From Paludibacter sp. (lineage in GTDB: Bacteria; Bacteroidota; Bacteroidia; Bacteroidales; Paludibacteraceae), in contig JAGNPC010000001.1 of NCBI GenBank assembly GCA_017989795.1, positions 1 to 35,250 on the forward strand: DNA of 35,250 nucleotides, read 5' to 3'. The notes beneath the pieces are model-generated. The model made no database searches and had not been told where the DNA came from. It worked only from the letters and a program-made list of their open reading frames with translations. Position 1 is the first letter of the stretch, and each line of letters begins with the position of its first letter. Position numbers and translations under genes: made by a program. Shown here one piece after another: positions 21,203-34,870 of the stretch.

Positions 21203-21296
21203 GGTTGATTTTACCTTCAGGTATTTGATTTAGGATTGCAGTATCTAACCTCTCAGCAATCGCGGCTGTATCGGAGATTTGACCTGTAAAACAACC
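21203..21296 (+). promoter_or_regulatory. Structured S4 ribosomal leader upstream of rpsD (probably S4-Bacteroidia type)
   Basis: Outer stems GGTTG/CAACC, TTTTA/TAAAA and CAGGT/ACCTG. The inner CTCT-CAGC/GCTG-GGAG hairpin resembles 16S helix 18. Confidence 0.7.
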
Positions 21297-25267: not shown

Positions 25268-26659
25268 ATGAAGTCTAGATTTTATCAAATCGTTTGTATA
25301 GCTATAAGTGTAGTTTTGTTTACAGCATGTAATATGCTTGATTCTAATGAAGTAGAATTATCAACGGATTCACGTTTCGTTTCACTAACTTTCAAGAATG
25401 CAAATGCAGCTGATAAGAATGTTCAAACGGCTACTTTTAAAATTGTAAAAGATGATAATAGTTCTGATTCAATAATTGTAAGTGTCGATTCTTTGCCCTA
25501 TAACACTGCCATCGATAGTGTTATTCCAACCTTTCGGTTTGTAAGTACTAATCGCGTTTTAGTTTTTCGAAATGATGAAAATGGTGTTCTTAAAGATTCA
25601 ATCTATTTAACAGGTAAAGATACTCTCGATTTTCGTCGTGTTTTTAAGATTAAAAATTATGCATCTGATGGCATAAAGTCTTCTATATATCGAATCAAAG
25701 TGCTTGTGCATTCTCTTGAACCTGAGTTGTTGCAGTGGAGACGCTTAAATTCTTCGATAAATGACGATTTGGGTTTAGATAAAAAAGCAATCTATTTTAA
25801 CAACGAGATTTTTCTTTTTTCTAATTCAGGTCAGGGTGTTTCGTTAACTAAATCAACAGATGGAGTGGCATGGACGTCATTAATTGGTGTGTCAGGACTT
25901 CCTTCAAATGTATTATTGCATAATATGGTTGTTTTCAACAACGCCATTTATTATGTTCATACTGATAACTCAATTTTCAAGAGTACTAACGGAGTTGAAT
26001 GGACAAAGACATCGACCCAAAGTTATCCTTTTGAATTTAAAAATCTCTTATTTGTATTCAAATCAAAAATTTGGGTTATTGTTAAATCTGATTTAAAATA
26101 CAGATTTGCAACTAGTATAGATGGTGTTGAGTGGAATGTTGAACAATCGATAGTTTTAGATTCAAATTTCCCTATCTCTGGTTTTGCTGCTTTATCGTTT
26201 AAATCGCGCACTAATCAAGATAGAGTTATTGTCGCAGGTGGATATAACAGTAATGGCGAGCTTTTAAATAAAGTGTGGTCGTCGAGTGATGGTTTATATT
26301 GGGTGGATTTTTCATCTGAAAATACAACTTTTGGTCAACGTACGGGTGTATCACTAATTCATTACGAAGATAAATTATTGTGTTTTGGTGGTGCAGATCA
26401 ATTCGGGAATCAGTGGCCTAATATGTTTTTGCAATCTAAAGATGAAGGATTGAGTTGGAAGTCAGCTGATTCGTTGATGTGGGTGCGTGAAAAGTTAACT
26501 GATGGTACGTATCGTAAATATGAACGCAGATACAATCAAAACGTAATTGTGGATAAGGATAAATATATTTACTTGATTGGTGGACGAGATTCTGCTAATA
26601 ATTATTTTAAAGATGTTTGGAGAGGTCGACTTAATAAATCGGTTTTTCTGATAAAATAA
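25268..26659 (+). CDS. Lipoprotein with a C-terminal Kelch/BNR-like beta-propeller (DUF6242-like)
   Basis: Lipobox LFTA-C21 followed by acidic residues. Repeated S-x-D/N-G-x-x-W Asp-boxes and GG...W Kelch-like blades. Confidence 0.75.
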   Translation: MKSRFYQIVCIAISVVLFTACNMLDSNEVELSTDSRFVSLTFKNANAADKNVQTATFKIVKDDNSSDSIIVSVDSLPYNTAIDSVIPTFRFVSTNRVLVFRNDENGVLKDSIYLTGKDTLDFRRVFKIKNYASDGIKSSIYRIKVLVHSLEPELLQWRRLNSSINDDLGLDKKAIYFNNEIFLFSNSGQGVSLTKSTDGVAWTSLIGVSGLPSNVLLHNMVVFNNAIYYVHTDNSIFKSTNGVEWTKTSTQSYPFEFKNLLFVFKSKIWVIVKSDLKYRFATSIDGVEWNVEQSIVLDSNFPISGFAALSFKSRTNQDRVIVAGGYNSNGELLNKVWSSSDGLYWVDFSSENTTFGQRTGVSLIHYEDKLLCFGGADQFGNQWPNMFLQSKDEGLSWKSADSLMWVREKLTDGTYRKYERRYNQNVIVDKDKYIYLIGGRDSANNYFKDVWRGRLNKSVFLIK

Positions 26660-26675
26660 ATATTATTTTTTATTC

Positions 26676-26714
26676 AAAAAAGGATCGTTGCAATTGATGT
26701 AACGATCCTTTTTG
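26676..26714 (+). terminator. Rho-independent terminator
   Basis: AAAAAAGGATCGTTGCA-attga-TGTAACGATCCTTTTT. Confidence 0.88.
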
Positions 26715-26765
26715 GATTAAGTCAATCGCTTTAATAATGCTATTGTTCAATTGCAAAAAATGTCG

Positions 26766-26773
26766 TATCTTTG
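26766..26773 (+). promoter_or_regulatory. Sigma-A promoter -7 box for rplY
   Basis: TATCTTTG in the context CGTATCTTTGC, the same as at the rpsL promoter. Confidence 0.8.
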
Positions 26774-26795
26774 CGCCACTTTTTTGTAAAAGAAA

Positions 26796-26857
26796 GTGTG
26801 ATGGGAAATTAAGCAACTAATCACTTAATATCGAAATGCTTAAATTTTGAGTAACAC
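26796..26857 (+). promoter_or_regulatory. Candidate L25-binding leader mimicking 5S rRNA loop E
   Basis: GTGT-GATGG-GAAATTAAGCA ... TGCTTAAATTTT-GAGTA-ACAC forms a symmetric GAUGG/GAGUA internal loop flanked by helices. Confidence 0.6.
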
Positions 26858-26871
26858 AAAAAAAATTAAAA

Positions 26872-27456
26872 ATGAAATCATTTGAATTAAAAGGAACTGT
26901 AAGAACAGGTCTTGGAAAAAAAGCTACGAAAGCTGAACGTGCTGTTGATAGTGTACCATGTGTACTTTACGGTGTAAGCGACAATGTTCACTTTTCGACA
27001 ACTAACAGCGACTTGCGTAAGTTGATTTACTCGCCAGAGGTGTTTGTAGTAGATCTTAGTGTTGATGGTAAAACTTGTAAAGCTGTAATGAAAGCATTGC
27101 AATTTCATCCAGTAACTGATAAAGTTTTGCATATCGACTTTTTAGAAGTAACTGAAACGAAGCCTGTAGTTGTTGAGATTCCAGTTAAATTAGAAGGTTT
27201 GGCCGAAGGTGTTAAAGCCGGGGGTAAATTAGCGCTCGAAATGCGTAAACTAAAAGTAAAAGGATTGTATACGCAAATTCCTGAAAACATTGTAATTGAT
27301 GTTACGCCACTTGGTTTAGGTAAAACAGTTCAGGTTGCTGCCGTTTCGGTTGAAAATCTTGAAGTTTTAAATGCTAAAAACGCTGTTGTTTGTCAGGTTA
27401 AATTGACAAGAGCTGCTCGTGGTGCTGCTGCCGCAGCTGCTGCAGGTAAAAAATAA
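26872..27456 (+). CDS. rplY: 50S ribosomal protein L25 / general stress protein Ctc
   Basis: VPCVLYG, QFHPVTDKVLHIDF and GVKAGG motifs. Confidence 0.98.
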   Translation: MKSFELKGTVRTGLGKKATKAERAVDSVPCVLYGVSDNVHFSTTNSDLRKLIYSPEVFVVDLSVDGKTCKAVMKALQFHPVTDKVLHIDFLEVTETKPVVVEIPVKLEGLAEGVKAGGKLALEMRKLKVKGLYTQIPENIVIDVTPLGLGKTVQVAAVSVENLEVLNAKNAVVCQVKLTRAARGAAAAAAAGKK

Positions 27457-27463
27457 TTTTAAT

Positions 27464-27504
27464 TGCTAGAACAGACTACATACGGTAGTCAGTTCTAGCA
27501 TTTT
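27464..27504 (+). terminator. Stem-loop, possibly a partial terminator, after rplY
   Basis: TGCTAGAAC-a-GACTAC-atacg-GTAGTC-a-GTTCTAGCA followed by TTTT. Confidence 0.65.
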
Positions 27505-27581
27505 AATTTTAAAATTACAAAAAGATGAAACGAGCTCTTCAAATAAACTTTGACACACAAGGAAATGTTTATTGCGAGTTC

Positions 27582-27602
27582 TCCCGCCAAAGCGGGACAA
27601 GC
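27582..27602. repeat. Short GC-rich REP-like palindrome
   Basis: TCCCGC-CAAA-GCGGGA-CAAGC in an AT-rich intergenic region. Confidence 0.45.
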
Positions 27603-27633
27603 TATGTGACTAATAAAAATCAATTATAAACAC

Positions 27634-28197
27634 ATGAAATACTTAATTGCAGGTTTGGGTAATATTGGTAATGAATACCATAATACTCGCCACAATATAG
27701 GATTTAGGATATTGGACGCTTTTGCCGAAGCGTCCAATGTTTTTTTTGCAGATAACCGTTATGGTGCTACAGCCGAAGTTAAGGTTAAAGGTCGTACTTT
27801 GATTTTGCTAAAACCTTCCACGTTTATGAACTTAAGTGGTAACGCACTTCGATATTGGATGCAAAAAGAAAATATACCTGTTGAAAATGTGCTGGTTGTA
27901 GTCGACGATTTGGCTTTGCCTTTTGGCACACTGCGTTTAAAACCTAAAGGTTCGGATGCTGGTCATAATGGATTGAAAAACATACAGGAGGTGTTGGGGC
28001 ACTCAGATTATGCTCGTTTACGTTTTGGTGTAGGAAGCAATTTTGCTAAAGGCAGACAAGTGGAGTATGTTTTGGGTAAGTGGAGTGATGAAGAATCGTT
28101 AAAACTTGGTGAACGTGCCGAAAAATGTGCTGAGATTATTAAGAGCTTCTGTTTAGCTGGTATGCAGCTTACAATGACGCAGTTTAATGGGAAGTGA
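27634..28197 (+). CDS. pth: Peptidyl-tRNA hydrolase
   Basis: [29 protein letters not shown] and RLRFGVG motifs. Confidence 0.98.
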
Positions 28198-32559: not shown

Positions 32560-33279
32560 TTAATACTTTTTTCTTAGACTTTCTCCTTTTAATTGAAATC
32601 GTATTGATTTATGAACGATTCTGTCTAAACAGGATTCCGCAATCAATTCATTTCCAATAACCGCATACCAATCATTTACTGGTAATTGACTGGATATTAT
32701 CAATGCTTTTTTTCGATATCTGTCATCAACAATCTGTTGAAAGTCGTTTTGTTGCTGCCCCTCTAGTACTTTCATGCCAAAGTCATCAATGATTAACATG
32801 TCCACCCGTGAGAGTTTTTCCATGAATCGTATTTCTTGTCCTTGCAATCGTTCGAGTTTAATTCTGTCTAATAACTTTTGCAGGGTGAAAAACACGACAT
32901 TAAATCCCAATCTACATGCTCTATCGCCCAATGCAACAGCCAGATAGGTTTTTCCAGTTCCTGTTGGTCCGTTGATAACAATTGTTTGTCCATTACGCAC
33001 AAATTCACATGTCCCTAACTGCGCCACAGTAGTTGCGTCAACACCTCTGGCGGTATCATAATCCAACTCCTCAAAGGAGGCTGGATAAGGAAACATGGCT
33101 TCTTTTAGCAGTCTAGCAATACGGTTTGTTTTTCGGGTGTCTTGTTCGGTTTGCAACATAAGTTGGAGTCCATCAAGGAGTGAGAGTTTGTCGGCTCTGC
33201 GTGTTTCGCAAAGGGATGTCCAACAATCGGCCATCCCTGGAAGCTTCAGTTTGTGAAGCGATTTTTCAATTTCTTGCAT
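32560..33279 (-). CDS. istB: IS21 helper AAA+ ATPase IstB
   Basis: Walker A GPTGTGKT, Walker B LIIDDFG, and the DRIVH...L.GESLRK motif. The likely start is ATG 33279 (MQEIEK). Confidence 0.96.
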   Translation of the reverse strand: MQEIEKSLHKLKLPGMADCWTSLCETRRADKLSLLDGLQLMLQTEQDTRKTNRIARLLKEAMFPYPASFEELDYDTARGVDATTVAQLGTCEFVRNGQTIVINGPTGTGKTYLAVALGDRACRLGFNVVFFTLQKLLDRIKLERLQGQEIRFMEKLSRVDMLIIDDFGMKVLEGQQQNDFQQIVDDRYRKKALIISSQLPVNDWYAVIGNELIAESCLDRIVHKSIRFQLKGESLRKKY

Positions 33280-33298
33280 ACAATGATTTTTTAATTGA

Positions 33299-34870
33299 TT
33301 ATTTAAAATATGAGTTTCCTCGCATATTTTCATGATTAGTTGGCTGTGGATTAATACGTTTCTCGTTTTCGCTTTGTGATTTAGCCACATTGATATTGCT
33401 GATTACATTTTGCAGGAACTTACCCGAGTACGACTTGTTTTGGATCGCAATCTGGCAGGCTTGTTCAAAATCGGCTATTGGTGTTTTTCTACCTATCGAG
33501 AGCATATAATCACAGGTTTTGTATTTGAACTCTGGTGGAATGTTACGTTGTTCCAAATCCAGAAACATGTCCGATACAAGTTGCTTAAATACAGAACTTT
33601 GCTTTTCAGCCTTTTCTTGATAATAGTCCGGCGAACGGCTTAAAATAGCGTTGGAATTGGATGCCAGATGTTCTTTTTTGTGTGTATGCCCAAAGCCAAA
33701 GTGGCGCTCATGTGTAGCCACTAATTCACCGTTTACAAAGATCTTGACCAATGTGCGGGTGTAAATAACATGACTTCGTTTTCCGATATGGACAAAAGGA
33801 ACCGAGTAGTAATGTTTGTCGCGTGCCAAATAAACAAATCCGTCGTTACGCACTTGCAAATCGCAGCTAAACTTCATTTCATAAGGCTGTTCGGGCAAAG
33901 GGGATAGGGTCTGCTTCTCTACGGCAAAGAATTGCTCTTGACGACTATATGGACGTTGTTGCATGCGTGTCTGATTGTGTTCAAGCATTTTCTGCGATAC
34001 AGCCTCATTCAACTCCTCCAATGAATAAAAAGTGGTGTTGCGTAGCTTGGCATACACCCGCCTGTAAATAATCTTCACCTGGTTCTCTACCAATGCCTTG
34101 TGTGTAGGAGAATAAGGGCGAGTGGGGATGGTTACAAAATGATAGTAATTACCCATGTCTTCCAATGCTTTGTTGAGTGTTGGTTCGTACTTATCCGCCT
34201 TTATTACAGCCGATTTAAGGTTGTCTGTTACCAAAATCTTAGGTACGCCCCCTATGGCTTCCATGCACTTGGAAATGGCATATAGGAAATCTTCCACTCG
34301 TTGTGTTGGAATACAAAGCGCGAAGGCGTAATCCGAATAAGGTAAACAAGCCACAAATACCTGTACCTTAACCACTTCACCTGTTTCTGTGTTTGCGTAT
34401 TGCAATGTATCGCCCGCAAAATCGACATACACCTTCTCGCCTGGAACGTATGTACCAGTCAATACCGTTGTAGGCGTACAGGCTGCCAATTGTTGTTTTA
34501 AGTGATGGAAAAACTGTGACTTACGATAACCATCAGGATGCTTGGCAATGTAATCCTGCCAAACCAAAAAACGCGTTACATGTTTATGCCCTAACGAGAT
34601 CTTAAAATGGGGCAACTCATCCAGAAACGTTTGATGCCGATAATCGGTGTATGCAGGATTTCCTGCTCTGAAGCGTGCTTCAAGTTCTGGATCTTCCATT
34701 TTCAATACATCTCTGAGCGACAATGGATCATTCCCAAAGAATCGAACATAATTATTTACCGTCTCTTTGTTTATATCCAAATCCTTGGCGATTTGACGGT
34801 TAGATACGCCGTTCTCACTCAATTGGAGAACTTGTTTTATTCTACTCATACTTGCTGATTTTCCTGCCAT
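33299..34870 (-). CDS. istA: IS21 DDE transposase IstA
   Basis: N-terminal HTH (SNRQIAKDLDINKETV), then VDFAG, GGVPKILVTDNLKSAV, KALVEN and HYYSVP motifs. The likely start is ATG 34870 (MAGK). Confidence 0.96.
   Translation of the reverse strand: MAGKSASMSRIKQVLQLSENGVSNRQIAKDLDINKETVNNYVRFFGNDPLSLRDVLKMEDPELEARFRAGNPAYTDYRHQTFLDELPHFKISLGHKHVTRFLVWQDYIAKHPDGYRKSQFFHHLKQQLAACTPTTVLTGTYVPGEKVYVDFAGDTLQYANTETGEVVKVQVFVACLPYSDYAFALCIPTQRVEDFLYAISKCMEAIGGVPKILVTDNLKSAVIKADKYEPTLNKALEDMGNYYHFVTIPTRPYSPTHKALVENQVKIIYRRVYAKLRNTTFYSLEELNEAVSQKMLEHNQTRMQQRPYSRQEQFFAVEKQTLSPLPEQPYEMKFSCDLQVRNDGFVYLARDKHYYSVPFVHIGKRSHVIYTRTLVKIFVNGELVATHERHFGFGHTHKKEHLASNSNAILSRSPDYYQEKAEKQSSVFKQLVSDMFLDLEQRNIPPEFKYKTCDYMLSIGRKTPIADFEQACQIAIQNKSYSGKFLQNVISNINVAKSQSENEKRINPQPTNHENMRGNSYFK

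Follow-up and report, generated by a model that had tools for sequence, protein, structure and literature searches.

The region upstream of rplY in Paludibacter sp. raises the question whether the leader of this gene carries a copy of the 5S rRNA site that is recognised by the encoded protein, bL25, and, if so, whether the copy is used for feedback control. The window, i.e. the whole stretch of DNA that was analysed, has a length of 35,250 nt. A pairing check on its sequence revealed a hairpin with a 4-bp outer stem and an 11-bp inner stem with one bulged A, which are separated by a 5 × 5 loop with GATGG opposite GAGTA (G·A, A·U, U·G, G·A, and G·G). The coordinates of all features are summarised in Table 1. 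The stem ends at −15, leaving 14 nt to the ATG. All of the pairings and coordinates of the sequence-only reading, as well as its 14-nt gap to the ATG, are present in the sequence. The single-sequence folding energy was no better than that of shuffles (z −1.2 and −1.3), and the case against chance is based on comparative evidence. A repeat or mobile origin of the leader was rejected, as it is single-copy in this genome.

Table 1. Features of the rplY locus, with their positions in the window
Feature	Position	Strand	Basis and remarks
−33 element TTG of a Bacteroidota housekeeping promoter (likely)	26743..26745	+	Inferred; 20 nt ahead of the −7 box
−7 box TATCTTTG (TAnnTTTG)	26766..26773	+	Sequence
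Predicted transcription start, A (5′-UTR of 94 nt)	26778	+	Inferred by offset from B. thetaiotaomicron BT_4589
Weak 5′ hairpin, −5 kcal/mol	26778..26797	+	Overlaps two outer-stem bases; seen in this genus only
Outer stem, 5′ strand GUGU	26796..26799	+	99.1% of cells paired; two-sided changes at 4 of 4 pairs
Loop E mimic, 5′ strand GAUGG (5S positions 72-76)	26800..26804	+	Same as own 5S rRNA; conserved
Inner stem, 5′ strand GAAATTAAGCA	26805..26815	+	Covarying; compensatory variants inside the genus
Apical loop	26816..26836	+	Enclosed segment 13 to 94 nt across the order; genus-invariant ACT(A/G)ATCACTTAA
Inner stem, 3′ strand TGCTTAAATTTT, A26843 bulged	26837..26848	+	Pairing check; covariation
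Loop E mimic, 3′ strand GAGUA (5S positions 100-104), −23 to −19 from the AUG	26849..26853	+	Same as own 5S rRNA
Outer stem, 3′ strand ACAC, end at −15	26854..26857	+	Covariation; pairing check
A-rich translation initiation region without Shine-Dalgarno motif	26858..26871	+	−14 to −1 A/U only
rplY, long two-domain bL25 (Ctc/TL5 type), 194 aa	26872..27456	+	PF01386; solved bL25 chains, best E 2.5e-69
Terminator-like inverted repeat after rplY	27455..27509	+	Sequence

For the comparative analysis, 137 rplY upstream regions of Bacteroidales were used, 18 from this genus and the others from the better-scoring ones among 250 genomes, which biases the set towards close relatives. A motif finder identified the element in 109 of the 137 regions (101 in a strict form), compared to 20 of 1367 control regions upstream of other genes in this genome (strict form: 1). 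Four further variants were recognised by a covariance model, resulting in 113 leaders. Because the finder fixed the central loop letters, it is circular to infer from its matches that these letters are invariant. A search that was blind to the loop letters, and was confined to known 5′ stem starts, found the arrangement of 4 bp, 5 × 5 loop, and at least 4 bp in 104 of the 137 regions, and the loop was NAUGN/N(A/G)GUA in 97 of these 104.

For 80 aligned leaders, 96.4% of the cells were paired, and two-sided changes occurred at all ten pairs. The number of cells with two-sided changes was 100, versus 21 in shuffles. In slid registers of the alignment, the paired fraction was only 24-53%, and RNAalifold independently recovered the same helices. 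In an L25 protein tree, which is weak because of its median of 77 residues, partner positions share 78 of 104 possible changes, compared to 251 of 607 for non-partners; none of 20,000 partner permutations reached the observed sharing. The check proposed in the sequence-only reading, i.e. for the motif and covarying flanks in rplY upstream regions of Bacteroidales, thus had a positive outcome.

The distance between the stem and the ATG has a median of 15 nt and ranges from 9 to 30 nt; it is 20 nt or less in 91 of 103 non-redundant leaders, and in the other 12 the gap between stem and AUG is above 20 nt, reaching 30 nt. Across the same 103 leaders, the GUG/CAC sequence of the outer stem is represented by G-C in 100, U-A in 96, and G-C in 102 cases. 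Several individual features were observed in addition. Within the genus, the apical ACT(A/G)ATCACTTAA is kept in all 18 members although adjacent bases vary. Two leaders (L048 and L052) contain a duplication of the 5′ arm (CATCGTGTGAT) upstream of the stem, generating an additional hairpin. In the diverged leaders L126 and L134, the outer stem is GC-rich (GCGG/CCGC) and situated some 30 nt from the ATG, and the diverged leaders L120 and L053 are degenerate, with the 3′ strand alone being kept.

The element is essentially specific for rplY. An exact-pattern scan of a species-genome collection, which was blind to the gene, yielded at least 120 loci, and rplY is situated directly downstream in 115 of the 120 matches listed. 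The five other listed loci are one contig end 20 nt past the match, two L25-like N-termini below threshold, and two chance matches without the inner stem (Poribacteria and Planctomycetaceae). Carriers among the matches listed are Parabacteroides distasonis, Segatella copri, Prevotella, Porphyromonas, Dysgonomonas, Proteiniphilum, Bacteroides sp., and Saccharicrinis. The covariance model has a single site in this genome. It matched in 71 of 151 evenly drawn Bacteroidales genomes, a count that includes many genomes of the training set and from which strict filters remove weak matches. Of the 72 whole-genome model matches, 70 are directly ahead of rplY, and the other two are a contig end and a weak match. 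By both counts, the element is found essentially only with its cognate gene, as is expected for an rRNA-mimicking leader.

Among 24 motif-less Bacteroidales regions, eight combine a promoter box with a short leader, and most of the others lie close behind a prs gene, as judged from the sequence. The lack of a model match in about half of the Bacteroidales genomes and the eight motif-less leaders with their own promoter box indicate that the element is dispensable.

For other orders of Bacteroidia, a loop E-like element was found in one of 67 upstream regions (68 were given and one was not located), and in none of 23 upstream regions from other classes of the phylum. In one family of another Bacteroidia order (f144), three of 18 genomes have a loop E mimic before rplY (L295, L395, and L396). 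Its outer stem differs, i.e. GUU/AAC (GUU-GAUGG ... GAGUA-AAC), and it may have arisen by independent origin or transfer. A model search of 146 genomes of other orders, a number that includes G356 (a genome marked as unpublished, the locus of which, L276, was left out of all sequence analyses), gave one weak match (E 0.043) that is not near rplY. The covariance model is insensitive to the second lineage, as it missed G276 in this search. The f144 loci L286, L390, L394, L401, and L405 have hairpins without loop E just ahead of rplY, some with similar GCGGAUGC/GCGAAU loops, which are possibly another leader type.

To relate the leader to the rRNA, we take its two loop strands to be equivalent to 5S positions 72-76 and 100-104, within a loop E that spans 72-78 / 98-104. 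Loop E in the own 5S rRNA of this genome reads GAUGG-UA / GA-GAGUA, and its GAUGG and GAGUA strands are identical to those of the leader, so that the five pairs of the leader match the real target in this organism. In bacterial 5S rRNA, loop E consists of seven non-Watson-Crick pairs centred on G75-A101 (PMC1976436), and this complete motif is not present in the leader. Instead of U77·A99 and A78·G98, the leader has ordinary pairs, i.e. G-U at 77·99 in 85 of 103 leaders and A-U or G-C at 78·98 in 90 of 103, and the mimic therefore comprises five of the seven pairs. The sequence-only reading had stated that five consecutive non-canonical pairs are copied exactly; this is correct for the five pairs, which are identical to the own 5S rRNA, but it does not account for the other two of loop E.

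The variation within the loop partly parallels that of 5S rRNA. The pair 72·104 is G·A in 80 and A·A in 23 of the 103 non-redundant leaders, and position 72 shows the same alternation in 5S rRNAs of the same order, with 26 G and 4 A among 30 parsed sequences (one of 31 was not parsed). The pair 76·100 is G·G in 80, G·A in 14, G·U in six, and different in three leaders. While position 100 is a G in all 30 parsed 5S rRNAs, the leader is looser at this position and tolerates A or U. Loop exceptions are a G for A101 in three leaders and a C72 in one. The possibility that the leader is part of a 5S gene was rejected, with the covariance model having no match at the four 5S loci given.

The encoded protein has the residues R11, R23, H87, and D89, which we take to be those that contact 5S rRNA, and all four are invariant in 13 aligned bL25 proteins. 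The assignment of the −33 element presumes the consensus spacing of Bacteroidota promoters, to which a sigma-70 promoter scan is inapplicable. In 106 of 109 leaders, a relaxed −7 box precedes the motif by no more than 90 nt. For the L25 gene of B. thetaiotaomicron (BT_4589), dRNA-seq is reported to place the primary start at the fifth nucleotide after TTTG, with a UTR of 90 nt and a terminator recorded after the gene (PMC7366714). Contigs from RNA libraries start at 26792, 26802, and 26805 and run through the leader into the coding sequence, showing that leader and gene are joined in RNA. Such contigs do not give the start site, and the absence of contigs ahead of 26792-26805 provides no more than a weak indication. 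The element is thus situated inside the transcript and upstream of a ribosomal protein gene, with the start in this organism being predicted.

A was found at positions −11, −12, and −13 in 94, 83, and 75 of 113 leaders, respectively. Initiation in Flavobacterium is described to depend on A-12/A-13 and on a weakly structured region between −20 and +20, and bS1 has been proposed to be located near −12 to −15 (PMC6847099).

Several further features of the neighbourhood were noted. An inverted repeat similar to the terminator-like repeat after rplY closes the upstream gene (26670-26720). A dispersed intergenic repeat of about 120 nt (27510-27635) is located between the rplY terminator and pth; blastn identified 13 more pieces on nine other contigs of the genome, and public contigs pile up there. 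The window also contains an S4-Bacteroidia leader (RF03139) at 21234-21268, before rpsD, and an ORF on the minus strand (32560-33390) that, from its translation alone, resembles the IS21-family IstB ATP-binding helper.

We propose, with a probability of about three in four, that the leader hairpin is a translational operator of bL25 that acts by rRNA mimicry. The copying of five of the seven loop E pairs before rplY makes it likely that surplus L25 binds its own message and thereby lowers its own translation. The core of this reading consists of four observations, i.e. the structure, the restriction to rplY, the match to the own 5S rRNA, and the end of the element 15 nt ahead of the AUG. bL25 is a known binder of loop E, and the E. 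coli bL25 is described as a proven autogenous translational repressor (PMC4408793).

The predicted mechanism is as follows. When bL25 is in excess of free 5S rRNA, its N-terminal domain would bind the loop E mimic. The bound protein would stabilise a marginal helix, as the predicted outer-stem probability has a median of 0.6 across the order and is 0.25 in this genome. Helix and protein together would cover −15 to −23 and would crowd the A-rich site, at which Bacteroidota ribosomes would land in place of a Shine-Dalgarno motif, and loading of the 30S subunit would be hindered. Because two loop E pairs are missing, the mRNA site would be weaker than that of 5S rRNA, so that ribosome assembly would be served first. 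A dedicated competing hairpin would be unnecessary. Several findings do not favour the operator model. Only five of the seven loop E pairs are present, and position 100, an invariant G in 5S rRNA, is variable in the leader. The stem stops short of −12/−13, the adenines at −11 to −14 are free, and spacers of up to 30 nt occur. In addition, about half of the Bacteroidales genomes (all but 71 of 151) have no match.

The position of the stem end, which leaves A-11 to A-13 single-stranded, and the spacer range of 9 to 30 nt could also be reconciled with binding of bL25 to the mimic that has a different output, i.e. altered mRNA decay or the capture of new bL25 on its own message. We regard this as unlikely. 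The spacer is tightly clustered, at 20 nt or less in 91 of 103 leaders, within the zone between −20 and +20 that is sensitive to structure. In E. coli, the precedent is reported to be translational (PMC4408793).

The partial conservation of loop E, together with a GUG/CAC outer stem the sequence of which is conserved far beyond the needs of pairing and is unlike the 5S flank, might alternatively point to a generic non-canonical module of which bL25 is not the effector. It could be bound by another 5S-binding protein, or be a Mg2+-stabilised element, a translation enhancer, or a nuclease site. This explanation has slightly less to recommend it. The near-complete confinement to rplY (115 of 120 listed loci, 70 of 72 model matches, and a single site in this genome) does not favour it, and bL25 itself is the known loop E binder (PMC4408793).

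The sequence-only reading had interpreted the locus as an L25-sensing autoregulatory switch, in which a 5′ hairpin at 26777-26798 shares GTG with the outer stem. The hairpin is present as written and is predicted in 18 of 18 genus members. As the likely start at A26778 leaves C26777 untranscribed, it competes for two stem pairs (G26796 and U26797) rather than three, and it can coexist with the operator at the cost of these two pairs. For the outer stem, probabilities of 0.42-0.82 are predicted in 17 of the 18 genus members. In this genome, with its value of 0.25, the predicted minimum fold combines the 5′ hairpin with the pairing of GUGAU and AUCAC of the apical loop (−13.5 kcal/mol, versus −12.6 kcal/mol for the operator). 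A two-state switch, with the 5′ hairpin as a dedicated anti-operator that must be displaced by bL25 binding, would be compatible with the genus-wide hairpin that engages two to three stem bases, with the minimum fold in this genome, and with the invariant apical motif of the genus.

We nevertheless consider such a switch improbable. Across the order, the 5′ segments have less pairing to the stem arm than shuffles (4.16 versus 4.86 nt, Stouffer Z −3.9, n = 69 non-redundant leaders), and the apical loops have no excess of complementarity (Z 0.4, n = 58). The pairing probability of GUGAU:AUCAC is 0.08 or less in the other 17 genus members, and the nearest-neighbour model ignores stabilisation by loop E. 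Conserved mutually exclusive pairing, as required for a two-state switch, was thus not observed, and the 5′ hairpin as well as the apical-loop anti-operator were rejected as conserved features. Of the switch proposal, the element itself is supported by conservation, covariation, linkage to rplY, and the match to the own 5S rRNA, while the switching part is not, with a hairpin that is restricted to the genus. Lastly, some ribosomal protein leaders act by transcription attenuation, but a bL25-dependent variant is very improbable here, because no U-tract follows the stem (the leaders listed have A-runs there) and no terminator-like site was found in 26600-27650 by a scan that is insensitive and also missed the AU-rich flanking hairpins.

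The operator reading can be compared with known systems. The leaders of S8 and L1 mimic rRNA. The same is described for L4, L20, and S15 (PMC4408793), and the leader studied here resembles all of these in that part of an rRNA site is copied in the mRNA near the start codon and that it is lineage-restricted. A mimic of this kind for bL25, or one of 5S loop E, was not found in the literature searched. A leader of gammaproteobacterial rplY was described by Aseev, Bylinkina, and Boni in 2015 (PMC4408793), and L25-Gammaproteobacteria was extended by Eckert and Weinberg in 2020 (PMC7247131). The two leaders have in common the location in the 5′-UTR of a stand-alone rplY, the presumed effector, and an irregular hairpin before an AU/A-rich initiation region with a weak or no Shine-Dalgarno motif. 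In contrast, the gammaproteobacterial operator consists of a hairpin with a GUCG loop, which its authors at first glance find unlike loop E (PMC4408793), and it is reported for four gammaproteobacterial families and for short bL25 only (PMC10931766, PMC4408793). In the leader studied here, the core is a literal loop E and the apical part varies, and the gene encodes a long two-domain bL25. The hairpin HII with a GUCG loop is absent, the apical part of 13-94 nt has no conserved GUCG, the weak SD-like GAGA(G) is missing from the region from −14 to −1, which contains A/U only, and the protein of 194 aa is not a short one-domain bL25. The Bacteroidales leader is unrelated to the gammaproteobacterial L25 leader.

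S4-Bacteroidia (RF03139) and L13-Bacteroidia (PMC7247131) are elements of the same class in the same lineage, but belong to other genes and have other structures; S4-Bacteroidia is reported to be unlike rRNA (PMC7247131). At the gathering score, no Rfam family matched the leader in the window or 11 homologous loci. At E ≤ 10, 26 matches were obtained, none to an L25 family; they belong to unrelated families and are mostly on the upstream terminator-like hairpin. In full-text literature searches, mostly of open-access papers, an L25 leader of Bacteroidales was not found to be described. Eckert and Weinberg (PMC7247131), in the parts covered, list L25 for Gammaproteobacteria only. The parts covered of Fremin and Bhatt (2021) contain no matching candidate; one Prevotella candidate is located within 5 kb of RplY in a minority of its occurrences. 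The two supplements of a periodontitis ncRNA study have no L25 entry. The suggestion of the sequence-only reading that the leader may be undescribed is consistent with these results. The leader is a real ribosomal protein leader family that apparently has not been described.

According to a 2024 review, autoregulatory features occur only in species with a short bL25, and none are recorded for the long two-domain form (PMC10931766). The E. coli L25 study is reported to have neither shown nor excluded mimicry (PMC4408793). If the predicted function is correct, the leader is probably the first example of 5S loop E mimicry by an mRNA operator and, at the same time, the first autoregulatory element for a long two-domain bL25/Ctc. 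It would occur in Bacteroidales of the gut, the mouth, and the environment (Parabacteroides, Segatella, Prevotella, Porphyromonas, Dysgonomonas, and Bacteroides) and would recur in part of one family of another Bacteroidia order. The latter recurrence suggests that loop E mimicry may be a recurrent solution for bL25 feedback.

The leader is a compact RNA family that is missing from Rfam. It is a candidate for a natural minimal bL25 site with five of the seven loop E pairs, and, if the operator model is true, its natural variation would show which five pairs bL25 needs. The regulation of long bL25/Ctc could be tested directly in tractable gut Bacteroidales, and the leader could be a model for the action of a repressor in a lineage whose translation initiation does not involve Shine-Dalgarno pairing.
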